From the NCBI GenBank assembly GCA_963575745.1, contig CAUYUJ010000230.1:62001-116561 (forward strand): a stretch of 54,561 bases of DNA. The letters are read 5' to 3'. Under the pieces are notes generated by a model. That model did not search any database and had not been told where the DNA came from. It saw only the letters and a program-made list of their open reading frames with translations. The stretch comes from Prorocentrum cordatum. Its lineage: Eukaryota. Both the position numbers and the translations under genes were made by a program. Below, in pieces: positions 8,156-54,400 of the stretch (its first letter is position 1; each line of letters begins with the position of its first letter).

Positions 8156-8177
8156 TCCGACGCCATTTTGGCTCAAG
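8156..8177 (+). other. Dinoflagellate spliced-leader (DinoSL) relic
   Basis: TCCGACGCCATTTTGGCTCAAG versus DCCGTAGCCATTTTGGCTCAAG: 20/22 identical. Confidence 0.9.
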
Positions 8178-40269: not shown

Positions 40270-40730
40270 GGAGGAAGAGGAAGGGTAGGAGAAGGATGAT
40301 CATGATGAGGAGGATGAGGATGAGGAGGAGGAGGAGGAGGCGGAGGCGGAGGAGGAGGAGGAGGGGGAGGAGGAGGAGGAGGAGGAGGAGGCGGGTCGAG
40401 CACGTGATTCACCTCAGGGGTATCCCCCGTCGAGGATGCTCGGCGTCTCTGCTCTTTCTTGACTCGGCCATGGTACCTTTCACGCGGCCGCGGAATCGAA
40501 AGAGGCAGAGGCGGAGGATGAATATGTGGAGGAAGAGGCGAAGAAGGAGGGGGAGGAGGAGGAAGAGAAGGATGAAGCGGAGGAGGAACCGGTGGAGGGA
40601 GGAGGAGGAGGAGGAGGAGGAGGAGGAGGAGGAGGAGGAGGAGGAGGAGGAGGAGGAGGAGGAGGAGGGGAGGAGGAGGAGGAGGAGGAGGAGGAGGAGG
40701 AGTAGGAAGAGGAGGAATAAGAAGAGGAAG
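40270..40730. repeat. (GGA)n tract
   Basis: Visible. Confidence 0.95.
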
Positions 40731-42034: not shown

Positions 42035-42620
42035 ATGATGATGGTGATACTGATGTTGTTGCAGATGATGATGATGATCATGATGATGATAATGATGATG
42101 ATGATGCTGATGATGATGATGATGATGATGATGATGGTGGCGATGATGATGATTCTGATTATGATGATGCTGATGATGATGCTGCTGCTGATGATGATGA
42201 TGATGCTGATGACGCTGATCATGCTGATGATGCTGATGCTGATGCTGCTGCTGATGATGATGACAACGATGACGATGCTGATGATGATGATGCTGATGTT
42301 GATGCTGATGCTGTTGATGATGCTGATGATGGTAATGACGACGATGGCGACGAGGACCATGATAACGATGATTGCTATGATGCTGCTCATGCTGATGATT
42401 GTGATGATGCTGAGGATGATGATGCTGCTGAAGATGATGATGATGTACTATGGGGATGATGATGCAGATGAGGGTGAGGATGATGATGATGCTGAGGCTG
42501 CTAATGATCATGATGCTGATGCTGCTGCTGAAACTGATGATGGTGATGAAGGTGACGCTGTTGATGATGCTGATGGTGGTGATGACGACGACGAGGACGA
42601 TGATGACGACGACGATGATG

Positions 42621-42673
<53 letters not shown>

Positions 42674-43568
42674 AATGATGATGATGCTGATGATGATAAT
42701 GCTGATGCTGATGATGATGATGATGAGGATGCTGATGTTGTTGATGATGATGCTCATGATGACGATGACGATGCTGATGCTGATGCTGATGATGATGCTG
42801 ATACTGCTGCTGGTGATACTGAGGATGATGACGATGATGCCGATGATTATGATGATGGTGCTTGTAGCAATGACGACGAGGAGGAGGATGAGCAGGAGGA
42901 GGATGAAGAGCTGATAATACTAGTGATGACGATGGTGGTGATGATAATGCTGCGGCTGATGCTGATAATGCTGATGCTGATGATGGTGAGGTGGTTGAGG
43001 AAGTCGAGCATGCCAATGCTACTGGTACTGGTGCTGATGATGCTGATGCTGATGATGTTGCTGGTGCTGATGCTGATGACGGTGGCGACGATGATGCTGA
43101 TTCTTATGCTGATGATGATACAGCTGCTGCTGATGATGATGATGATGCTGTTGATGATCATGACGATGATGCCGATACTGGTGCCGATGTTGATTCTGTT
43201 ATTGCTGATGGTGAAGATGTCGATTCTGCTTATGATTATGCTGGTGATGGTTTTGGTGATGGTGATGCTGCCGATGATGCTGATGCTGCTGCTGATGATG
43301 ATCCCGATGATGATGCTGATGATGATGATGAGGATGATGATCATGATGATGGTGGCGATGCTGACCATGACGATGCTGCTGATGATGACGCTGCTGGTGA
43401 TGATGATGTTGATGCTACTGCTGTCGCTGATGCTGATGCCGATGCTTCTGATGCTGCTGCTGATGATGATGCGGCTGCTGATGATGATGCTGATGCTGAT
43501 GATGATGATGCTGATGACGATGATGTTGATGCTGATGCTGATGCCGATGATGATGATGATGATGATGC

Positions 43569-43600
<32 letters not shown>

Positions 43601-43965
43601 CTGATGATGATGATGATGCTGATGATGATGATGATGGTGATGGTGATGCGGACCATGATCTTGATGATTGTGCTGCTGTTGCCGATGATGTTACTGATGA
43701 CGATGATGATGGTTAAGGCGATGCTGGTCATGCGGGTGCTGCTGATGCTGGTGATGCTGATGATGATGAGGCTGATGCTTATGCGGATTCTGATCATGAT
43801 GATGATGCTGCTGCTGCTGATCATGATGCTAATGCTGCAGATGATGATGCTGATGATGCTGTTGATGCTGATGCTGATGCTGATGATGATGCTGCTGCGG
43901 CTGTTGACGATGGTGGGGATGACGATGATCCTCAGGATGATGCTGCGAACGAGGATGATGAGGAG
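42035..43965. repeat. Degenerate (GAT/GCT)n tract
   Basis: Visible. Confidence 0.97.
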
Positions 43966-44902
43966 CAGGGCGATAAGGAGGAAGAGGACGGCCGTTACGT
44001 GTGACGCCTTTCGTCTTCAATATTTGTGGAGCCCCGATGGAATTCGTTTTTGACGGTGAGGCAGTTTGGGGGGGCCCTCTTGGGCCGTTTGGGGGCCCTC
44101 TGAGGCTGTCTAAGGATTCGTATGGGGCCGTTTTGTATGAATCTTGGCCTCGAGGGAGGGGTTGTGGCCTCAGGAACGCGACTTTGATGTGATTTTTTAG
44201 GGGTTGTGGTCTCGAGAGTGGGCCATGTATGCATGACTGCGCTGGTAGGGGGGGGGGGCTGGAAGTTTCGAAAACCCGACCAGACACCACTTGGCATTCT
44301 AGCACTCCTCAGCGTGCTCGTGGGCACAGTGGCGGATACGTTGTTGGACTCCAGGGGCCCTTCGTTGGCTTCAGGACCGTAAAACAATAACCCAGGATTA
44401 ATGACCGATGCTGTGGGAGGCCTCCAGGGTCTAGAATCCGTCAGGACCAGTTTGCTTCATGCCACATCTTACGTAGGGGAGGGGGAGGTGACTGGGGAGG
44501 AGGACGGGGAGGGGGGAGGGGAGGGGGAGTCGGGGGAGGAGTACAAGTGGGTCTGCCTAGTGGGCGGGCCTTGTAAAATCAATGGTCACCTCTGTGTCGT
44601 GCCTGTCGCGTTTTGTGTCTTGTGTCTGGAGCACTGACTTCCCTCGAAGAGACTCGTTTCCTCTCGCACTGTCTCTGCAGCCAGTCCCGACTGCAGTCAT
44701 GACGCGCAGTGAATTCCCAATAGCAATCCGCTTGGATTCGGAGAAGAAACACATTTTTTTTGAGGTCCGCGCGGAGTTCTCTGAGCGGCTTCCTGGCGCG
44801 CTTCGCGCGCCAGCGAGGTGTGTTCGGCCGAGGTCGGGTTCGTTTATGAGCGGGCGGGTCATGGCATTTCTTCAAGGTGTGCTTCCTTGGGGGCCCCCCC
44901 AG

Positions 44903-45005
44903 GAGAAGGCGAGCGAGCGGATGGGCGCTCTGTGCTCGGCCGTCGCCAGTGTCATGACCGAGCGTATGAATGAGGGCCGCTCGGTGACCTGGCGGGACCT
45001 CTCAG
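44903..45005 (+). CDS. Probable exon of HPR/OPR-type protein; gene likely continues beyond the LINE
   Basis: cAG|G acceptor; EKASERMGALCSAVASVMTERMNEGRSVTWRDLS(G); CAG|GC donor; in phase with the previous exon. Confidence 0.62.
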
Positions 45006-45469
45006 GCGCCTCGGGGGGCAGCCGACGCTCCTCCTCCTCCTCCCTCCTCCTCCTCCTCCTCCTCCTCCTCCTCCTCCTCCTCCTCCTCCTCCTCCTCCTC
45101 CTCCTCCCTCCTCCTCATCCTCCTCCCTCCCTCCCTCCCTCTCCCTCCCTCCCTCCCAGCCGCCGCCCCGGTTCGAGAGGTTTGGGTGCCGTACCAGGTA
45201 CGGCGACCTCTCCCACGGCGGCAGCCACGCGCGCTGGCCCGCGCCCCAGTCCCGCGCGATCCGCGCCTGGGCGGCCTGCGGCCGGCCGCGCCCGCTCGCG
45301 CAGCCCCCCGCCTGGCCCGCCTGCAGGGCCCGCTGGCGGCGCTGGACCCCACAGGCGCGCGCGCGCCGAGCCCCCGGGGCATCGGCGCGCGCGCCTGAGA
45401 CGGACACAATCGCGTACGCTGCTGCGTGTCGCGGCCGCCGCTCGCCTCCTTGCCGCCCACCACAGTGCA

Positions 45470-45667
45470 ATGGGCAAGGGTCGCGCTGGTGCGACTGGCG
45501 GCACAGCCCCCCCGCCGTGGCAAGGCGCGCCGCCGCCCCCACCGCCAGGCTGGTGGTGCGATGACTGTGGCAGCTTCGACGGCCCGCTGGAGAGGCTTTG
45601 CAGGTGCTGCTACCCAGGCCCGTCGGGCCCAGTCGGGGGAGGCGGCCACGGTGGCTCACCGCAGCAG

Positions 45668-45709
<42 letters not shown>

Positions 45710-47311
45710 GAGCAGCATCCTCGCCGCCGAAGCACGACATCCCCAGGGACGCCAGCCCGCCGACGCTCTTTCTCCCGCCGCCGCAGGCGCGAGCGCGAGA
45801 GGCGAGAGGAGCGGCCGCGGTCAGGCTCACGGGTACGCTTCGCGGACGAGCCCGAGCCAGACCCCGACGGCAACGGCGTCTCGGACGCCGACGAGGAGTT
45901 TCGCAGCCCTGCGCTAGGGATTCTCCCAGCGCTGCCGCAGGAGGCGAGGCTGCACCCTGCGTGGGTTGATCCACCCAGCGACGAGCGTGCCTTGGCGGCG
46001 CACAGGAGGACACTAAGGCAGATTGCCGCTGCGACAGGGAAGCGACTTCAAGCTTCCATCGACCTCGGGGCCTCCGAGGAGATTTTGACAAGTCAGAAGC
46101 TGGAGTACAGTGTCCAGCTGTGCATGATCATCACGGCCCGTGCGCCAGGCGAGCGTTGTGACTGCCAACGTGCATGCGTTGCCAAGGCCCTGGGCAAGTT
46201 CGAGCGTGCCCGCGAGGCGGTCGAGAAGGCGCAGGCACGACTACAAGAGGCAGATGCGAAGTGCACGCAGCGCGAGAAGGAGCACGACAGGGCCAAGATG
46301 CTGCTGGACCAGCTCGAGGCGATGCAGATCGGCCCTGCAGCTGGAGGAGCAGCCGACGACGTGGACATGGGAGCGGACGAGGGCGGCACGCGGACGCCAG
46401 AGGTGGGAGGCGTGGCGCCTCAGACGCCTCAGAGCACGCCCGTGCAGCTGGCGGCCATCGCAGAGCTCCGGAGCGGCCAGGCGACGCTCGCGGCCCAGCT
46501 CAGCAGTTTGACGGCAATGCTGACGACGCTGCAGACCGCGATGGCAGCAGCAAGGACCCCACCAGCTGCTGGCGAGGTCCCCGCCCCTCCTGATGGCGGT
46601 GGCCCGCAGGTCAGGCCCTTCGCAGGCCAGCCCCAGCGCCTGGGCCGCATGCCGACGGCCGAGGAGCTCGCGGCCGCCGCGCCCGCCGCCGCGGCCGCGG
46701 TAGCAAGCCCAGTGGACGGAGCAGCTGACCACGCAGCTGCCGCCAGCGGCTGGCGGCAGCTGCGTGGTCAGCCCAGCGCCAGCCCCAGCGGGCAGCTGCG
46801 TGGGCAGCTGCCCGGTGCGTGGGCTGCCCAGCGGGCAGCCCACGCAGCTGCGTGGGCAGCTGCGTGGTCACCGGCGCGGGGCTGGCGGCCAGCCCCGCGC
46901 CGCCCACGCCCGTGGCTGCTGGCGGTGTGCCTGCGGCGCCTGCAGGGGCTGACGGCGAGGACCTCGCAGCGGCGCGGGCTCGAGCCGCCGCAGCACGCCG
47001 TGCGAAGCGCGAGCAGGAGCGTGCAAGGCGCCCGCCAGGTCAGCCGCTGCTCGTGGACGCCATGGCCAGGCAGCAGCAGCTGGGTGGGCATCGGGGCCGA
47101 GGATGCACCCCGACACCAGCTGGACGCGCTGACATCGCAGCGGAGTTCGGCGACCATGGGGCGGAGGCAGCCGCAAGACGGACGCGGCGCAGCCGTGATC
47201 GCAGCCCCCGCAGGCCCGACGGCTTCGAGATGGTTGGCGGTGCTGGTGCAGAATCGACTGGAGAGTCGACGCTGGGGTGATGCAACAGGGCAGGCGGGCT
47301 GCTGGGGGTGA
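45470..47311 (+). CDS. LINE ORF1 / gag-like protein: RanBP2-type Zn finger, polyQ, coiled coil
   Basis: ATG at 45470 inside ORF 44582-47311. WWCDDCGSFDGPLERLCRCC fits W-x-C-x2-C-x3-(N/D)-x6-C-x2-C. Coiled coil AREAVEKAQARLQEADAKCTQREKEHDRAKMLLDQL. The true C-terminus may shift into frame 46819-47280. Confidence 0.7.
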
Positions 47312-47589
47312 GGTGCCTGCTGCTAGCGCAGCCGACGTTGCATCAGATCCCTTTGTTCGGATGGAGTCCGATCCGACTTTCCCCCCTCGCTCCAGGCCGC
47401 CCTGCCCCATTCCCGATTGTGAGTCTTTTGTGGGGGGCCTGTGTATGCCCTGGCCCTGTGCTCACACGCTAACCTCAGTCTTCTACGGGCCCCAACAGTT
47501 GCCCGACGCCTGCTATTTCCCCCCCTATCTCCATAGTAGCGCACGAACCTTTTTTGAATCCCACGGAGGTGCCCTCCCCCCCCGAGGAC

Positions 47590-48050
47590 GAGGTTATCAT
47601 GTATGAGGTGCGTGCGGACGGATCTGGTGGATCTCGGGTGCAAGTGCCGGGTGGGCCACCATCGTGGGCGTGGTGCATGTACTCAGTGACTGCAACACAA
47701 CAGTACACATGTGCAGGTTATCTATGTGGTGTTGACCCCTCCCTCCTCGACCTGCCAAGTGCATCAGGTGCTGCTGAATTTCAAGCCGCCCTATGGCTAG
47801 TGCCATGGATGTTGCAGGCTCCCAGCAGATTCAGGTCCAGGCCCCATGGAAGTCTTCGCGGACAATATCCTTGTAGTCAGATCGGCCGAAGGCGGAGCGA
47901 ACTACTCGTCGTGTGGGGGCTATCCTGGGATGTTCGATGGGGTGCTGAAGCTTCTCCGCTGTTTTACCACGGTACGTTGGAAACATGTCCTGGGACACAA
48001 TGCCGATCCACGGAACGAGCTTGCAGATGCCATCGCACATTTAGCCTACA
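47590..48050 (+). CDS. RNase H domain at the N-terminus of ORF2, split by a frameshift near 47842-47845
   Basis: YEVRADGS..SWAW..AAEFQAA (frame 47554) continues into EVFADN..WKHVLGHNADPRNELADAIA (frame 47846): the D-E-D-H-D RNase HI signature. Confidence 0.85.
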
Positions 48051-51000
48051 TGGGCCTGGCACCGACGGTGCCCGACGACTTTCAACCGTGGTCTGCGCTA
48101 GGAGGCGCCGCCGCCGCTGCTATGCCCTGGTTGCGGATGTCAGCTGTTGCCAACGCCAGCGACGGTCAAGGGGCATGCCCGAAAGTTGGCGTGGATGAAG
48201 TGCCCAGCATATGTCCACCTCTCTTAGATCCCCGTTGCGCGTTCTCGCCGCATGCAGGACTCAGCTCGGAAAGTAAAGACACCGTCCATTCGCCCTCCAG
48301 TTCAGGTCTACATGCCTCTGTCAGGTTTGCAGTGGCCAATGTCCTCACGTTACGGCCCAGGAGGAAAGCAGCACGGAAGGGAGACAGGATGCGAATACGA
48401 TGTCGGTACCAGGACGCAGCAGGACTGGATACCCCTGGGCGCATGCTATCCTTGGCGTACTTGTTCGATGCGCGACAGTTTCTCTTTATCGGCACGCTTG
48501 AGACTAGAATGGGACGCAATGGATGGACGCCAGCCGCTCAGTATCTCGTGCTCACCACAGCCGCTGAACAGAAGGGTGCAGGAGGGGTAGCGTTGTGGGT
48601 GCACGCAGGTATTCAGTACGTGCGTGGTTGTACGCTTGCTCGCCGCCATCTCCGTGTTCTCAGCTTTGCCTCCCACCATCTTCTTGTTGCTGTGCGTGCG
48701 CCACATCTGTGCGTCGACATATTGGTTGGGCATGCTCCGCGCTCCAGACGTGACAGCGCCGAGGTTGATGAGTGGTGGGTAAGTATCGAACGCATTCTGC
48801 GCCAGCGCCCGCATCCCGCACCCCTGTACTGTTTGTTGGATGCCAATGCTACTCTGGGCTCCAGGGTCTCGGAACATGTTGGCGAGGTTGCCGCCGAAAA
48901 CGAGAACCACGCCGGTGCACGTTTCCATCAGTTTTTGCAAACCACGGGACAAATTGCCCAGTCCACGATGTTACCCTCGGCTTCTGGGGTCCACGGTACC
49001 TGGCTTCCCCCTGGGGCTCAAGGGACGGACCCGCGGCATCGCATTGACTACGTCACTGTCCCGTGCGGACAGCTATCGTGCGTTACACGACAGTCAGTGG
49101 AAGTGGATCTTGATCTCTCTTTGCGTAGTGGTGATCATTTTGTGGTGTCGGCAGATGTGCATGTGTACCCATCCCTGCCATATCAGCACGCACACACGTG
49201 GTCCCGTTTACGAGTGGACGAAGCGAAGTACAACGATCCAGAGTGTTGTGCCGCATTCGTGCGTGAGCTTGAGTCAGCGCCTCAGTCCGCCGACTCATCC
49301 CACCCGGACGACCATGCCGACCACTTGAGCCAGCACATTTTGCGTGCAGCCCAGGTTGCTTTCCCGCCCAGCGTTTCAGACACTGGCCGACAGGCCAAAC
49401 ATTGTTGGATATCCAAGGGATCCCTGGACCTGATGGACCTAAGAACTCAAGGACGCGCGGCCCTTCGGGCCCTTCGGTCACAACTGTCCCGCCTGCTCCT
49501 CACGTGTGTGTTCACTGCTTGGGCCACCGACGGTGCTGAGAGTGGCGCTCGGTTTTGCCATCGGACTTTGAGTTGGTTTCATTCATGGCGCGAGGGCCCA
49601 TCTCACTACCCAATACTGTGTGTATGCCGAGCTATCGCGAAGGCTACGGACACAGTCGTGGACTGCGCCGCCCCGTTTACCCTGCCCCTACGCAGCCCAA
49701 CAGACAAGTATACCTACCCACCGTTCAACCAAGACCACTTAGTGGGACTCAGATACTTTGCCCGCCTACCCACCACCCCCGAACTACTTTGCCCACCGAC
49801 AGGACTCTGGTTCCAACTGGGAGCCATACTGAGTTTTTGCCAAGGGTGGATGGGATTTTACTGGGCCGCCAGCTACATATTTCTGCGCGCTGCCACGGGA
49901 TTCGATTCCACATGGCATTGCGCTGCCATTGCCAAGGGAGTCAAAAGCGCGTGGGACCGACGGCAGTTTGCAGAGGCTTACTCGGCTTTGCGACGTATCG
50001 GGGCAGGGTCCAAAAGGCGCAATATTGATTGGGTTCTCCCAGCACTACGTGACATCACGGGACAGCCTCTTGTGTCGGAGCGTGCAGTTGCCCAGCGATG
50101 GCAACAGCACTTTGCCAGCCTAGAGCTCGGGGCCACGTTCGCTATGGAAGATATCCCCCACATAGCAGGGCATGTCGGACGCACGCCGTATGCAGGCATG
50201 CCGACCGATGCCCCAATCTCGCCGGCTGCAATCCCGACGCTCTCCGATTTCCAGTGGTCTTGCCGACAAGCCCGTCGATCGGCCCCAGGTTGTGACGGGA
50301 TCCCTGGAGGCCTGGTGCGGGCGTGCCCTGCTGCCGTCGCTACATACTACTACCCACTCCAACTCAAGTTTTCCCTGACACTAGTGGAGCCCATTCAGTG
50401 GAAGGGTGGTTTTTACAGGGATATTATCAAGTCGGGTCAAGCGGATCCGACACAATGCCTCAGCTCCAGGTCTATTCTTGTCTCGTCCCAGATAGGAAAG
50501 GCGTCTCGGCGGTGCATACGGAAACAACTACTCCCCTTCCTCGCCCAGGAAGCAGGCGAAACCCAGTTCGGGGGCCTCCCAGGCCGCGGCACAGCCCATG
50601 CATCCCTTATACTACGTACTGCACAGGCTTTAGCACGACGGCGCAACACGAGTTTTGGAGCCCTGTTTATGGACGTGGTGCAAGCTTTCTATCGGGCCAT
50701 ACGACAGCTCGTCATACGTGCGTGCCATGAGACCGAGCTCGACGACGATGCAGTTGCGACGTTGGTGCGAGCAGCCGGACTACCACCTTCCGTGATGCCT
50801 CAGCTTGCCCAGAGACTCAGTGAGCAGCCCGCGGCTCTCAACAACTCTGACGTTGACCGACATGTGGTGGCCCAGGTTGGCCAATGCTACCAGGCCCCCT
50901 GGTTTGTCTGCGAAGGGTCCGACCAGGTATCGTTCCCACAGAGATCCTTCTTTCCTGGGCAGCCCCTAGCCGACGTTCTATTTGAGCTACAAATGGCCGA

Positions 51001-51169
51001 CTGTATGAAGGACGTCCGCACCCAGCTTACAGAGCAAGGTTATGCCCATCTTCTCCCGCCACCAACAGGTCGCTGGCAGCATTACTGCCCGCCGACCCGT
51101 CTGAACTACCACAAGCCACTCTACCACTACTCGATATTTCGTATGCAGATGATGGGACCATCATCCTAA
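47846..51169 (+). CDS. ORF2 part 1: RNase H C-terminal half, AP (EEP) endonuclease and N-terminal part of reverse transcriptase
   Basis: APE motifs ANVLTL, GTLETR, GGVALWV, GHAP, LLDANA, TW, RIDYV, GDHFVV. RT motifs APGCDGIP, RSILVSS..GK, QFGG..GRG, LFMDVVQAFY, PGQPLADVLF. Confidence 0.92.
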   Translation: MEVFADNILVVRSAEGGANYSSCGGYPGMFDGVLKLLRCFTTVRWKHVLGHNADPRNELADAIAHLAYMGLAPTVPDDFQPWSALGGAAAAAMPWLRMSAVANASDGQGACPKVGVDEVPSICPPLLDPRCAFSPHAGLSSESKDTVHSPSSSGLHASVRFAVANVLTLRPRRKAARKGDRMRIRCRYQDAAGLDTPGRMLSLAYLFDARQFLFIGTLETRMGRNGWTPAAQYLVLTTAAEQKGAGGVALWVHAGIQYVRGCTLARRHLRVLSFASHHLLVAVRAPHLCVDILVGHAPRSRRDSAEVDEWWVSIERILRQRPHPAPLYCLLDANATLGSRVSEHVGEVAAENENHAGARFHQFLQTTGQIAQSTMLPSASGVHGTWLPPGAQGTDPRHRIDYVTVPCGQLSCVTRQSVEVDLDLSLRSGDHFVVSADVHVYPSLPYQHAHTWSRLRVDEAKYNDPECCAAFVRELESAPQSADSSHPDDHADHLSQHILRAAQVAFPPSVSDTGRQAKHCWISKGSLDLMDLRTQGRAALRALRSQLSRLLLTCVFTAWATDGAESGARFCHRTLSWFHSWREGPSHYPILCVCRAIAKATDTVVDCAAPFTLPLRSPTDKYTYPPFNQDHLVGLRYFARLPTTPELLCPPTGLWFQLGAILSFCQGWMGFYWAASYIFLRAATGFDSTWHCAAIAKGVKSAWDRRQFAEAYSALRRIGAGSKRRNIDWVLPALRDITGQPLVSERAVAQRWQQHFASLELGATFAMEDIPHIAGHVGRTPYAGMPTDAPISPAAIPTLSDFQWSCRQARRSAPGCDGIPGGLVRACPAAVATYYYPLQLKFSLTLVEPIQWKGGFYRDIIKSGQADPTQCLSSRSILVSSQIGKASRRCIRKQLLPFLAQEAGETQFGGLPGRGTAHASLILRTAQALARRRNTSFGALFMDVVQAFYRAIRQLVIRACHETELDDDAVATLVRAAGLPPSVMPQLAQRLSEQPAALNNSDVDRHVVAQVGQCYQAPWFVCEGSDQVSFPQRSFFPGQPLADVLFELQMADCMKDVRTQLTEQGYAHLLPPPTGRWQHYCPPTRLNYHKPLYHYSIFRMQMMGPSS

Positions 51170-52809
51170 TCATGCCTGCGAGCCAGCTGTATGACGGACT
51201 CAGCCGAGTTCTTGGATGTGTTTCCGAGGCGTTTGCCACCCGAGGACACAAATTCAACCTGGGACCATCCAAAACGGCTGCTTTGATTTCGTGGCGCGGA
51301 CCCGGATCAAAAAAGGCTAGGCATGCTGCGTGGCACGAATGCGGAGGACTCATTGTGAGCGACTCGGGCCTCCTGGGGCGGATCCAGGCACCCATCGTGC
51401 ACAACTACATCCATTTGGGGTCGGTGTTCGATGCGGGAGGTGTCATGACTCCAGAGAAACGTTGCCGGTCGTCGTCGTCGGTCGCCTCCCTGCAAGTGCT
51501 ACGACGACGGGTGTTTGCCGCAGACGAGTTGGATGTGAGAGAGCGCCTTATTCTTGCAGACAGTCTCGTCATGTCCAGTCGTCTGTGCAATGCAGGGGCT
51601 TGGCCAGCCCTCACTCGTGCCGAAGCACACCTCATACACGTTGGGGTCATGAAGGTGTATCGTGCAGCAGCCCGTGTCAGTTATCGAGAGGACAGTTCAC
51701 AGGTATCAGACCAGTTGGTCCTGGCACGTTTGCGACGACCATCTCCAGACATGATCCTACGGGCCGCCAGACTTCGGCTACTTGGGCCCCTGGCCCATAC
51801 AGGTCCCGCGGTCGTTTTCGGGCTCGTTGCGGCCGAGTGGCACGCAGCCGTCGTTACGAACACACAGAATCGGACTATCCTGGGACTTTGGTACGATGAT
51901 CTCGGTTGGCTACAACAGGCGCTCCCCGCACTGGGTGATTTACCTCTGCCAGCCGACGACTTTGCAGCACCATGGGAGTCGCGTATTCGTCGCAGTCAGC
52001 CAGCACGGAAGCGCATAATCCAGGCTGGTTTACATGCACACGCACAGCATGCAGCACGTGTGACGTTGGCGCAGCATGTTGAACGACAGTTCTTTGCCGT
52101 GGTGAAGCCAGTCGGAGTGCCCGACCGAATCTACACTAACGAGCGCGGGCTCATCGTGGATCCCCCACCCCAGGCAGCACATCCCACGCATATATGTCCG
52201 TGGTGCGGCACACAATACTCACGACATCGAGCCCTTCGGACACACATCGCGCGCGCACATCGACAGCTGTCAACACTCGCAAAGGGATATGCATGCCCTA
52301 GCGGTACATGCACTACGTGCCTAACTAAGTTCTACGCTCGGGCGCACCTAGTGGACCATCTATCAGTGGGATCACCACGGTGCCTACTTGTGTGTTTGCT
52401 ACAGACCGACAACCCAGCCCACCACCTGCAGCCACAACCCATCACCCAGCCACCGGGCACTACCGCCCAAGTGCGTATACCCCGACGGCACGTGGTTGTG
52501 CCCACTACCAAGGCGGCCGGCCCACTAACCGAGGAGGCCGCGAACTACCTCCACCTTTCACAGCAGGAAGCACGCATGGCCATACTGGAGGCTGATCCCT
52601 ATCTCACCGATGACGCCCGAGCAGCCTTCATACCACCGCCAGAGCCTATGCTAGGATTAGATGATGTGGATGCCGAACCCTACCCACCTGTCCAGACAAC
52701 GATACCCAGCCCGCATGTTCCTACCCGACCAGTATACAGGCCTGGCAGCACAGGCATTACCTGTGGCCATCAAGAAGGCCGAGTATCACGTCCTCAACTT
52801 GTTTTGTGA
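51060..52809 (+). CDS. ORF2 part 2: RT catalytic YADD, thumb and Zn fingers, after a frameshift near 51050-51070
   Basis: The frame of ORF 51172-52809 reads upstream as LPLLDISYADDGTIILIM, then GHKFNLGPSKTA and YIHLG. It contains the C2H2 finger CPWC..LRTHIARAH and CTTC..HLVDHL. Confidence 0.9.
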
Positions 52810-54079
52810 ACGTCGGAGGCCAGAGGACATTCAGGCATGTTTAGAGTGGGCACACTACGACGTTGATTTCACAGTCTCGGTCCTGTCCATAGACATTGCT
52901 ATTGACCCTGTCCTTGGGAACTTGATGCGACCCCAGACCTTGGAGGTTTGGAAGGAACACATCCGAGCGCGCAGGGTGGCCCTCTCTGGAGGTGGGCCTC
53001 CCTGCGAAACCTGGTCAGCCATCCGATGGGCTCGGAACATGGGGCCCCCACCACTGCGGTCCCACGACGATTTCTGGGGCATGCTTGCCATTACACCGCG
53101 TCAGATGGAGCAGGTACGTGTTGGCAACGAGCTACTAGGAGCCATGATAGGACTTTTTGCCCTTCACCTAGCCGTAGGCACATGTTGTTGGATGGAGCAT
53201 CCAGTACCAGCGTCGTGGCGACAAGAGGCCGTGAGCTCATTCTTGTGCCCACCCTTGCGCGCGATCATGGCATCACCTGCGGCCTCTACCACCGACTTCG
53301 ATCAGCGCGAACACGGACAATGTGCTCGCGCGCCTACACGGATATTGGTTTTGAGGATGTGTACGCTGCATGGTCGCCTTTTGGAAACGCTTGGTCGCGG
53401 ACGGTGCTCACACGGACAGAACGCCCACGAAGTGCTCATGGGTTTCGACGGTCAAACGAGGGAATGGCGGACGGCCAAAAAGAAGACATACCCCCCCGCG
53501 CTTTGTCATGTATTGGCCGACGGTATAGTGGATGCAGTCAATCATATGCGTGTGACGAGCGGTCCGCAGGCATGGCCAGAGGACATGGGGGAGGAGGAAG
53601 AGGCACTCCGTGGGGCACTAGAGGCCTTTTACGTTGCTTGGGACCCATATCTAGGCACGAACGAGGACTGGGCCCCCGATTTCGTAGGAGCTACGACGCG
53701 ACGTCTGCGCGCCGATCCTGCAAGCTCCAGGTTCTCACCACCCGAGCTCACAAGGGAAAGGCCAGATGCCGACGTACCCGCGCCGTCGCTCGTGCATGAC
53801 CCCAGTGCCACTCCTCGGCAGGCAGGGCCTGCTGAGGCAGACGAAGAGCAGGAATACGCAGACGCCACTGCCTTTCTAGAAGGCGCAGCGGCTCCGTCAC
53901 ATGTTGCACCTACTTCCGCCCCCCCTCCTTTGCCTACTCCAGTCCAGCTCACGGATGCACAGCGCGAGATGATTCAACACAAACGCGCTGAGGCCAGAGA
54001 CAGACGTAAGGCGCGCCTTGCTGCACGCATTGCTCCATGGACGTTGCAGCCAAATTTCGGCAGCGGCATCCTGGGCTAA
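52661..54079 (+). CDS. C5 cytosine DNA methyltransferase domain (about 52780-53530), probably the frameshifted C-terminus of ORF2
   Basis: Ordered motifs: I VLNLFCE (FxG variant), II/III SIDI..GNL, IV GGPPCETWS (PC at 53000-53005), GNELL, VI MEHP, VIII DQREHG..APTRIL, X KTYPPALCHVLA. Confidence 0.85.
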   Translation: MMWMPNPTHLSRQRYPARMFLPDQYTGLAAQALPVAIKKAEYHVLNLFCERRRPEDIQACLEWAHYDVDFTVSVLSIDIAIDPVLGNLMRPQTLEVWKEHIRARRVALSGGGPPCETWSAIRWARNMGPPPLRSHDDFWGMLAITPRQMEQVRVGNELLGAMIGLFALHLAVGTCCWMEHPVPASWRQEAVSSFLCPPLRAIMASPAASTTDFDQREHGQCARAPTRILVLRMCTLHGRLLETLGRGRCSHGQNAHEVLMGFDGQTREWRTAKKKTYPPALCHVLADGIVDAVNHMRVTSGPQAWPEDMGEEEEALRGALEAFYVAWDPYLGTNEDWAPDFVGATTRRLRADPASSRFSPPELTRERPDADVPAPSLVHDPSATPRQAGPAEADEEQEYADATAFLEGAAAPSHVAPTSAPPPLPTPVQLTDAQREMIQHKRAEARDRRKARLAARIAPWTLQPNFGSGILG

Positions 54080-54084
54080 GTAGA

Positions 54085-54400
54085 AGGATGGATGGAGGTT
54101 AGTCAGTGGGTCAAGTGGGGCAGGTTGGATCCCGAGAGAGGGAGCTTCCTCCCCCCTGTTTTGCTCTCTCACTGCCAGCCGCTATCCCTCTTGCCGCAAT
54201 GAAGTTGTCTATGTGGTGTTGACCCCTACCACCCGACCCACCAGTTTTGCCAAATCTGTCGGAGGCGGCTGTTTTCAAGCATGCCGCCATGGCTAGTGCC
54301 ATGGATGTTGCAGGTACAGCGGGTTCAGGTCCAGGCCCCTAGAATACTGGCTTGTGGGGACCACACTGGGAGTTTCGAAGGGGCGCTGAATTTTTCTGGC
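54085..54400 (+). repeat. Degenerate direct copy of the element's RNase H coding region (about 47615-47960)
   Basis: Exact blocks: 54208-54227 = 47721-47740 (20 nt), 54289-54314 = 47793-47818 (26 nt), 54324-54339 = 47830-47845 (16 nt). Weaker similarity of 54345-54397 to 47901-47955. Confidence 0.88.

Follow-up and report, generated by a model that had tools for sequence, protein, structure and literature searches.

The DNA analysed here, a 54,561-nucleotide stretch of the Prorocentrum cordatum assembly GCA_963575745.1 (contig CAUYUJ010000230.1, positions 62,001 to 116,561 of the forward strand; hereafter the window), harbors a dead copy of a multi-copy dinoflagellate retrotransposon of the non-long terminal repeat (non-LTR) type, also called long interspersed nuclear element (LINE), with its coding part at 47.56-54.08 kb on the + strand (Table 1; all coordinates are window positions). 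In order, this copy comprises an RNase H-like domain, an AP-endonuclease (APE), a reverse transcriptase (RT), two C2H2 zinc fingers and a C-terminal domain, here called domain X, which is predicted to adopt the fold of cytosine-5 (C5) methyltransferases. A preliminary description of the same DNA had proposed a LINE in which APE, RT and zinc fingers are followed by a methyltransferase-type domain, and this order was confirmed on the + strand by collinear relatives; the RNase H-like domain in front of the APE is an addition to it. The span given there, 45162..54400, was too wide, as 45162-47560 has no link to the element (71% G+C vs. 58% in the element, no homologue and no match to the N-termini of relatives) and the coding part ends with the stop codon at 54077-54079.

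Table 1. Features of the LINE copy and of the adjoining fragment, in window positions.
Feature	Position	Strand	Basis or remark
Possible N-terminal continuation of the polyprotein (tentative)	47199..47575	+	Open frame 47199-47606, window frame 0
RNase H-like domain	47563..48046	+	In two frames, shifting from 1 to 2 near 47846
AP-endonuclease (Exo_endo_phos-like)	48278..49468	+	Pfam PF03372, E 3.7e-4, 20.8 bits, under the 24.5-bit cut-off
Reverse transcriptase	49883..52404	+	YADD at 51142-51153; reading frame shifts from 2 to 1 near 51065
Two C2H2-type zinc fingers between RT and domain X	52189..52340	+	First finger 52189-52260, Pfam zf-C2H2, E 6e-4
Frameshift from the RT-zinc finger frame to the X frame (frame 1 to frame 2)	52690..52700	+	ORFs 50986-52809 and 52661-54079 overlap
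Domain X, ~300 aa, predicted C5-methyltransferase fold	52733..53650	+	Predicted structure and conservation over 239 domains
Domain X, motif I-like FCERRRPED	52802-52828	+	
Domain X, motif IV-like GGPPCETWS	52991-53017	+	
Domain X, motif VI-like EHP	53195-53203	+	
Domain X, DQ..G....PT	53300-53338	+	
C-terminal tail of the polyprotein	53651..54079	+	ORF listing; stop codon 54077-54079
Degenerate remnant of the RNase H region of another copy	54204..54390	+	140 columns align to 47717-47845 at 76% identity; a second block also aligns

Four stop-to-stop frames on the + strand cover this copy, namely 47473-48198 (frame 1), 47801-51169 (frame 2), 50986-52809 (frame 1) and 52661-54079 (frame 2). The RNase H-like domain was recognized in two pieces (P#### denotes related proteins and L### metagenome loci), with residues 97-187 of P0019 aligning to 47563-47817 in frame 1 (E 2e-4) and residues 376-432 of P0046 to 47873-48046 in frame 2 (E 7e-7). 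The Pfam profile RNase_H matches P0046 (E 1.5e-12) and L016 (27.2 bits, above the cut-off), and gives E 0.08, or 0.012 on a shorter piece, for the C-terminal end of the window's own domain. The APE region is collinear with tblastn matches of long relatives. Pfam RVT_1 gives no match on the window itself and reaches the Pfam cut-off in collinear relatives (32.0 bits in P0030, 32.2 in P0057, 30.6 in P0092 and 52.5 in L016). The zinc finger match falls on residues 402-425 of the open reading frame (ORF) 50986-52809, and P0002 carries the same CxxC...HxxxH pair in one frame with domain X. APE and RT are collinear in the window and in its relatives, as in non-LTR elements; a comparison of 44-54.5 kb with the window, which ends 480 bases past the stop codon, yielded no flanking direct repeats of the LTR kind, and Pfam matched no integrase or recombinase in the window ORFs, in 18 long relatives or in the full frames described below. 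The element is a LINE with two unusual additions.

The relatives are collinear with the window but change frame three times along its copy: 1) from frame 1 to 2 inside the RNase H-like domain, between 47817 and 47873; 2) from frame 2 to 1 inside the RT, between about 51040 and 51136; 3) from frame 1 to 2 between the fingers and domain X, between about 52660 and 52736, where P0001 and P0002 align across both ORFs 50986-52809 and 52661-54079 and relatives read straight through. In X1, a public DNA sequencing run of one organism whose contigs were compared with the window, 513 contigs matched the element at 90-100% identity, including 93 whose identity is at least 99%, showing that it is multi-copy; three other runs (X2-X4) gave 3-8 short contigs each. 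Frame-keeping indels were present in X1 contigs at all three breaks, with one letter missing at 47846 (depth 11.3 of 11.3), four extra letters behind 51065 in one contig (7.7 of 7.7) and 2 extra letters behind 52697 in two contigs (depth 40.7 of 63.4), while a loose contig end at the last of these sites continues with E-R-Y-P, as do P0001 and P0002. These data indicate that the overlapping frame remarked upon in the preliminary description, although present, is a mutation of the window copy near 52697, one of three of its kind, and not a programmed shift. The window's version is absent from X1 contigs at two of the three break sites, and the frameshifts at two of three sites are possibly assembly errors instead of mutations. 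In addition, the window copy has Glu in place of Gly26 of motif I (99% conserved in the family), Arg at position 192 (Cys in 71% or Gly in 24% of the family) and Ala at position 200 (Lys in 88%). With three frameshifts and the change of Gly26 to Glu in motif I, this copy cannot act in the way proposed below; it is a pseudogene, and the interest lies in the family. One X1 contig also has 2 extra letters behind 47575 (depth 20.4 of 33.3), which would join the open frame 47199-47606 to the RNase H frame; homology support for this continuation was looked for among the relatives and none was found. Summed contig depth, higher in 47639-54091 than in the outer bins, was tried as a guide to the ends of the element and was not used, since contig depth cannot rank parts.

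Turning to the family, the last ORF (52661-54079) has six close relatives at 37-62% identity, and six long proteins are collinear with the window across APE, RT and domain X. A profile of X relatives, searched against 1.84 billion cluster representatives, matched 5820 proteins (clusters at 50% identity) at E <= 1e-3, of which 655 remain at a threshold of E <= 1e-30; many of the matched proteins are 1300-3800 aa long with domain X at the very C-terminus; among the related proteins, P0032 is a Cladocopium protein in EukProt. Among the 40 listed relatives of at least 1200 aa, the N-terminal half of the RT was found upstream of domain X in 34, its C-terminal half in 30 and the APE in 24, with a non-collinear order in none (0/40) and the RT N-half undetected by BLASTP in 6. 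Pfam analysis of 18 long relatives gave RVT_1 in 12, C2H2 fingers in 5, an N-terminal RNase_H in 1 (E 1.5e-12) and PF00145, the C5 DNA methylase family, in 0. A metagenome scan, in which 325 of 427 pattern matches were confirmed and 80 loci kept, provided 56 loci with >4 kb upstream of domain X; an RT lies upstream in 53 of these and shares one uninterrupted frame with domain X in 38, and the frames among these loci include 24 of at least 2000 aa and 18 of at least 3000 aa. Eleven locus frames were translated in full without a stop, seven of them 3187-3631 aa long, and L016:605-6979 is an intact 2125-aa frame that holds RNase_H (27.2 bits), APE, RVT_1 (52.5 bits), a C2H2 finger and domain X. 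Given that the long relatives and the metagenome loci hold these domains in one frame, the architecture of the family is RNase H - APE - RT - 2x C2H2 - X in a single polyprotein, which bears out the earlier expectation of RT, zinc fingers and domain X in a single ORF and of other copies that carry the downstream domain.

That RT and domain X are accidental neighbours in the window, brought together by nested insertions or mis-assembly, is an idea to which the three frame changes and the fragment of another copy directly downstream might lend some weight; we regard it as extremely unlikely, with RT and domain X collinear in one frame in 38 independent metagenome loci as well as in 34 long proteins, and with a frame-keeping X1 indel at each of the three breaks. 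Two further traits of the polyprotein may be recorded here. In eight loci (L019, L020, L042, L045, L067, L074, L083 and L085), 1400-1900 residues precede the APE in intact single frames; no Pfam domain and no similarity to the window were found in these residues, and the large N-terminal extension is a feature of one branch of the family. At the other end, the extreme C-terminus (54020-54079, ...APWT...FG.G), which lies beyond the folded domain, is conserved with P0003 and P0004.

To judge what domain X may be, we rely on two AlphaFold2 models, built without templates by this one predictor, of the window's domain X (36 sequences, predicted local distance difference test score (pLDDT) 89.4) and of an intact member (75 sequences, pLDDT 88.5). 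Foldseek against the PDB gave 59 matches at E <= 1e-3, and all rows shown are C5-methyltransferases, among them DNMT1, 3A and 3B, DNMT2, MET1, ZMET2 and DIM2; when two different members were compared with 48,161 chains by VIA-align, C5-methyltransferases filled ranks 1-15 for one and 1-12 for the other. Rossmann proteins of the short-chain dehydrogenase/reductase (SDR) type scored 1.5-2 Z units below them, a modest margin, and TM-scores were 0.3-0.47. Among the viral models of BFVD, Foldseek found 25 matches at E <= 1e-3, of which all 17 with a name are methyltransferases, 15 explicitly cytosine-specific; the best are proteins of ~210 aa (E 1.7e-7 and 3e-6), one from an algal giant virus (Tetraselmis virus 1). 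The nearest Pfam-named clusters of the ESM Atlas belong to PF00145 (0.86-0.88), which we take as a lead only. In the model as assigned by DSSP, strands 184-190 and 201-207 are separated by a short helical turn, and in our reading they may match the beta6-beta7 hairpin of class I methyltransferases. Judging from these predicted structures, domain X is very likely related in fold to the C5-methyltransferases, in line with the preliminary description, and we favour the view that it represents a very divergent member of the C5-pyrimidine methyltransferase fold.

The conservation of domain X was assessed over 239 domains, of which 155 come from proteins, 83 from locus frames and one from the window. 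Residues conserved at 96-100% are G26 (99%), R28 (98%), R29 (100%), D32 (99%), S52, D54 (99%), G88, P89 (98%), P90 (96%), C91 (99%), E92 (97%), R98 (100%), P105, R109 (100%), G116, E155 (100%), H156 (99%), P157 (98%), Q191 (99%), P201, T202 (100%), G237, T247, K251 (96%) and Y253 (98%), with P90 and C91 scored over 224 covering sequences; F24 reaches 79% and K200 88%, and E155-H156-P157 closes strand 151-157 of the model. Canonical C5 enzymes carry FxGxGG as motif I, E-N-V as motif VI and Q-x-R-x-R as motif VIII. By sequence pattern, F-S-G would stand at motif I and D54, at the end of strand 2, at motif II, G-D-L (D 77%, N 22%) at motif III and GPPCETWS at motif IV (a placement that the register of the hhalign alignments supports), with E-H-P at motif VI. 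Cys91 is thereby the predicted Pro-Cys nucleophile of motif IV, and E155 the predicted motif VI glutamate, the latter by order and secondary structure. Domain X resembles canonical enzymes such as M.HhaI and DNMT3A/3B (PF00145) in its Pro-Cys after the central strand, in a Glu at the predicted motif VI position, in an acidic residue closing strand 2 and in the G-D-L of motif III; it differs from them in having FSGxRRxGD for FxGxGG, E-H-P for E-N-V and no evident Q-x-R-x-R, as well as a very short target-recognition insert, a partly conserved Cys/His cluster and no significant profile match. Of the ordered motifs claimed earlier, the positions of I-IV and VI held, including the letters of the catalytic-type PC (GGPPCETW) and of the EHP form of motif VI, whereas the window has FCERRR where the FxGxGG of motif I would stand, and the two arginines of motif VIII are not evident. 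The insert at the target-recognition position is only ~40 residues long, and its Cys/His cluster (C225 86%, H227 77%, H232 69%; residues 225-233, window 53405-53431) may form a small metal site.

Domain X is under purifying selection like the RT. The ratio of non-synonymous to synonymous substitution rates (dN/dS) was 0.06 and 0.05 for domain X and 0.04 and 0.03 for the RT in the only 2 usable of 1431 pairs, the estimate resting on these two because the other 1429 were unusable, mostly on account of saturated synonymous sites. The conservation of domain X, together with a dN/dS of ~0.05, suggested that it is an essential, probably enzymatic, part of the element.

A number of observations weigh against a C5-methyltransferase in this place, as exemplified by: 1) PF00145, the profile to which the preliminary description had looked for support, has no match for the window X ORF, for any of 7 members at E <= 1, for any of 18 long relatives at E <= 1e-3 or for any of 8 full frames, and among 36 members it is significant in none, with 2 matching at E <= 10 (best 0.11); 2) a PDB sequence search with the family profile gave no match; 3) hhalign was not significant (probability <3%) either for 36 X domains vs. 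9 true C5-methyltransferases (P 0.022) or for 239 vs. 129 (P 0.037); 4) motif I reads FCERRR in the window and FSGxRRxGD in the family, not FxGxGG, with the invariant Arg28-Arg29 where canonical enzymes have the glycine loop that holds S-adenosylmethionine (SAM); 5) the motif VIII region reads D-Q-C-x-x-G-x4-K-P-T, with no conserved Arg pair, K200-P-T202 appearing, in our own mapping by pattern, to take the place of Arg-x-Arg; 6) the CpG observed/expected ratio of the copy (0.87 vs. 0.81 in the window) is not depleted, a result that is uninformative as a footprint of self-methylation because the genome may be methylated throughout; 7) the canonical SymbioLINE-Dnmt enzyme gave no methylation in yeast in the single test published, a result its authors called inconclusive (PMC5890265). 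Likewise, a Dcm-type hidden Markov model found nothing in the window or in 80 loci, and PDB sequence searches with the X ORF, the full intact polyprotein and the window APE-RT ORF returned nothing relevant. Against E. coli Dcm alone, hhalign gave P 0.016 around the Pro-Cys only, and deeper profiles did no better. In these alignments, although they are not significant, motifs I to IV line up with those of bacterial and phage enzymes.

Could domain X then be an unrelated Rossmann-type nucleotide-binding domain, in which Pro-Cys and Glu resemble a methyltransferase by chance? The want of a significant sequence or profile match to any C5-methyltransferase speaks for this, as do the SDR proteins just 1.5-2 Z units lower and the origin of both models in one predictor. 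We nevertheless consider it quite improbable, for C5-methyltransferases are the first 12-15 of 48,161 chains for two members and top two further libraries, the invariant residues follow the order I-II-III-IV-VI in a register that hhalign finds independently, and PF00145 is the sole Pfam family matched by more than one of the 36 members (2/36), besides naming the nearest ESM Atlas clusters (0.86-0.88, again as a lead only).

The same departures from the canonical motifs raise the possibility that domain X descends from a C5-methyltransferase and no longer performs SAM-dependent methyl transfer, having adopted another cofactor, product or pyrimidine target, or having turned into a module without catalysis that flips bases or binds DNA and so assists the LINE in locating its target or staying on it, a task performed in other LINEs by C-terminal cysteine-rich and nuclease-like domains. 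This possibility, which we take seriously while finding it somewhat unlikely, would fit the replacement of the motif I glycine loop by Arg28-Arg29 (98% and 100%) followed by Asp32 (99%), the lack of evident motif VIII arginines, the failure of profile methods to place the family in PF00145 and the position of domain X directly behind two zinc fingers. However, Pro-Cys at 99%, the motif VI Glu at 100% and the strand-2 acid at 99% form the set that a functional covalent C5 catalyst using a nucleotide cofactor would retain; had domain X become a module for binding only, loss of the nucleophile would be expected. The dN/dS of ~0.05 in domain X equals that of the RT.

We return to the reading that we prefer, at a probability of about 0.45, namely that domain X is a DNA methyltransferase, specific for cytosine C5 and dependent on SAM, that works where the element integrates and modifies either the new cDNA or its flanks. 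After target-primed reverse transcription, the RT and the zinc fingers would keep the polyprotein bound at the insertion site; domain X would then flip out cytosines in the new cDNA or in flanking DNA and methylate them at C5 with SAM, so that new insertions might carry the mark from the outset, in agreement with the hypermethylation reported for Symbiodinium genomes. The idea of self-methylation has been proposed for the known retrotransposon DNMTs (PMC5890265). For domain X, we infer its cofactor, its substrate and its timing relative to integration, and we speculate that methyl transfer, and with it self-silencing or camouflage, may follow.

Two further readings deserve mention. Domain X could be an RNA (m5C) methyltransferase like DNMT2, marking the RNA template of the element or host RNA; a polyprotein that necessarily binds its RNA and a target-recognition insert of merely ~40 residues would suit such a role, while DNA and RNA enzymes are not told apart by the structural ranking, DNA cytosine methyltransferases head the viral matches and the preceding C2H2 fingers would fit DNA binding, and we hold an RNA substrate to be improbable. 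Less improbable, and in our opinion doubtful, is that domain X defines a large, Pfam-invisible clade on LINE polyproteins across dinoflagellates that uses a different cofactor or places a C5 pyrimidine mark other than 5-methylcytosine on newly made cDNA, a thought that arises because the SAM glycine loop is replaced by an invariant Arg-Arg-x-Gly-Asp. If true, LINE activity would be tied to the unusual base chemistry of dinoflagellate DNA.

Retrotransposons with a DNA methyltransferase of their own are known in few cases, and for dinoflagellates these are SymbioLINE-Dnmt and SymbioDIRS-Dnmt3; DNMT-carrying retrotransposons of Symbiodinium were rightly cited as precedent in the preliminary description (PMC5890265). 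Like the present element, SymbioLINE-Dnmt (de Mendoza et al. 2018; PMC5890265) is a dinoflagellate non-LTR retrotransposon with APE and RT whose cytosine-methyltransferase-type domain has an 'orphan' affinity; it is multi-copy and comprises numerous old lineages, its synonymous sites are mostly saturated, and its methyltransferase domain is under purifying selection like the RT. There, however, a PF00145 domain lies in a separate ORF1 upstream of the RT ORF, whereas domain X is PF00145-negative and forms the C-terminus of the RT polyprotein, and the element has two C2H2 fingers before domain X and an RNase H before the APE. The two are set apart by this description, in agreement with the distinct family suggested earlier, and the separate ORF1 layout was not encountered, domain X being C-terminal to the RT and in the same frame in 38/56 loci as well as in the long proteins. 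SymbioDIRS-Dnmt3, in which DNMT3 sits inside the DIRS pol (PMC5890265), the charophyte Gypsy-Dnmt3 and the EpiLTRs (10.64898/2026.05.21.726589) share with the element a methyltransferase domain in the RT polyprotein, which in the Cymbomonas EpiLTRs is appended to the 3' end of pol. Unlike the element, these are DIRS or LTR retrotransposons with a recombinase or integrase and with recognisable DNMT3 or DNMT4-like domains; domain X belongs to a LINE and stands outside the recognisable DNMT families. In the yeast test, the DIRS domains alone methylated DNA, SymbioDIRS-Dnmt3 methylating CG de novo (PMC5890265). The available portions of the same group's 2025 paper and 2026 preprint (10.64898/2026.05.21.726589) named only SymbioLINE-Dnmt, SymbioDIRS-Dnmt3, Gypsy/Copia-DNMT3 and the new EpiLTRs, and a keyword check of the accessible text of a review (PMC11453091) gave nothing relevant. 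Searches of the full-text literature, with Repbase and the supplementary figures of PMC5890265 outside their scope, revealed no LINE reported to bear a methyltransferase-like domain at its C-terminus. As for free-standing enzymes, the putative cytosine methyltransferase of Tetraselmis virus 1 (BFVD A0A2P0VN45) and its type, of ~210 aa, are compact with a minimal target-recognition region like that of domain X, and these short viral methyltransferases are its best structural matches (target-normalised TM 0.66 and 0.59); unlike domain X, they are encoded by free-standing viral genes, at an identity of 12-15%.

The element constitutes a distinct, abundant LINE family whose predicted methyltransferase-fold domain escapes the standard profile, and it adds to dinoflagellates a third architecture, in which such a domain is fused behind the RT of a LINE. 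The DNMTs of the 2018 survey were found with PF00145, according to its Methods (PMC5890265); surveys based on that profile would miss domain X and, should it be a DNA-modifying enzyme, would undercount transposon-borne enzymes of this kind in dinoflagellate genomes. If domain X is active, transposon-encoded cytosine-modifying enzymes in dinoflagellates would be far more numerous than reported, and the marking by a LINE of its own cDNA could be tested with a compact domain of ~300 aa; if it is not a methyltransferase, a catalytic fold would have been re-used as an accessory domain of a LINE.

As regards the surroundings of the element, the RNase H fragment of a second copy (Table 1) starts 125 bases past the stop codon of the polyprotein and could be a tandem or nested older copy. 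Upstream, 45162-47560 is a low-complexity open frame, and 44561-47311 (+) is an open frame of 916 codons and 71% G+C that encodes runs of Leu, of Pro and of Gln, a CxxC...CxxC stretch and a helical part; taken as an 'ORF1', the latter had neither a Pfam match nor a match to the relatives, and 8000 scored candidates included no homologue of it. The sequence around 46706-46902 is palindromic, matching itself in reverse complement. Farther away, 8157-8177 (+) matches the dinoflagellate spliced leader at 19/21 bases (0/100 shuffles match); this relic points to a transcript nearby that was once trans-spliced and then retroposed, and makes a dinoflagellate host very probable. Trinucleotide arrays at 42035-43891, 40270-40716 and 45028-45126, comprising (ATG)n of ~618 copies, (GGA)n of ~40 and 63 copies and (CTC)n of ~32 copies, give rise to long spurious open frames on both strands.

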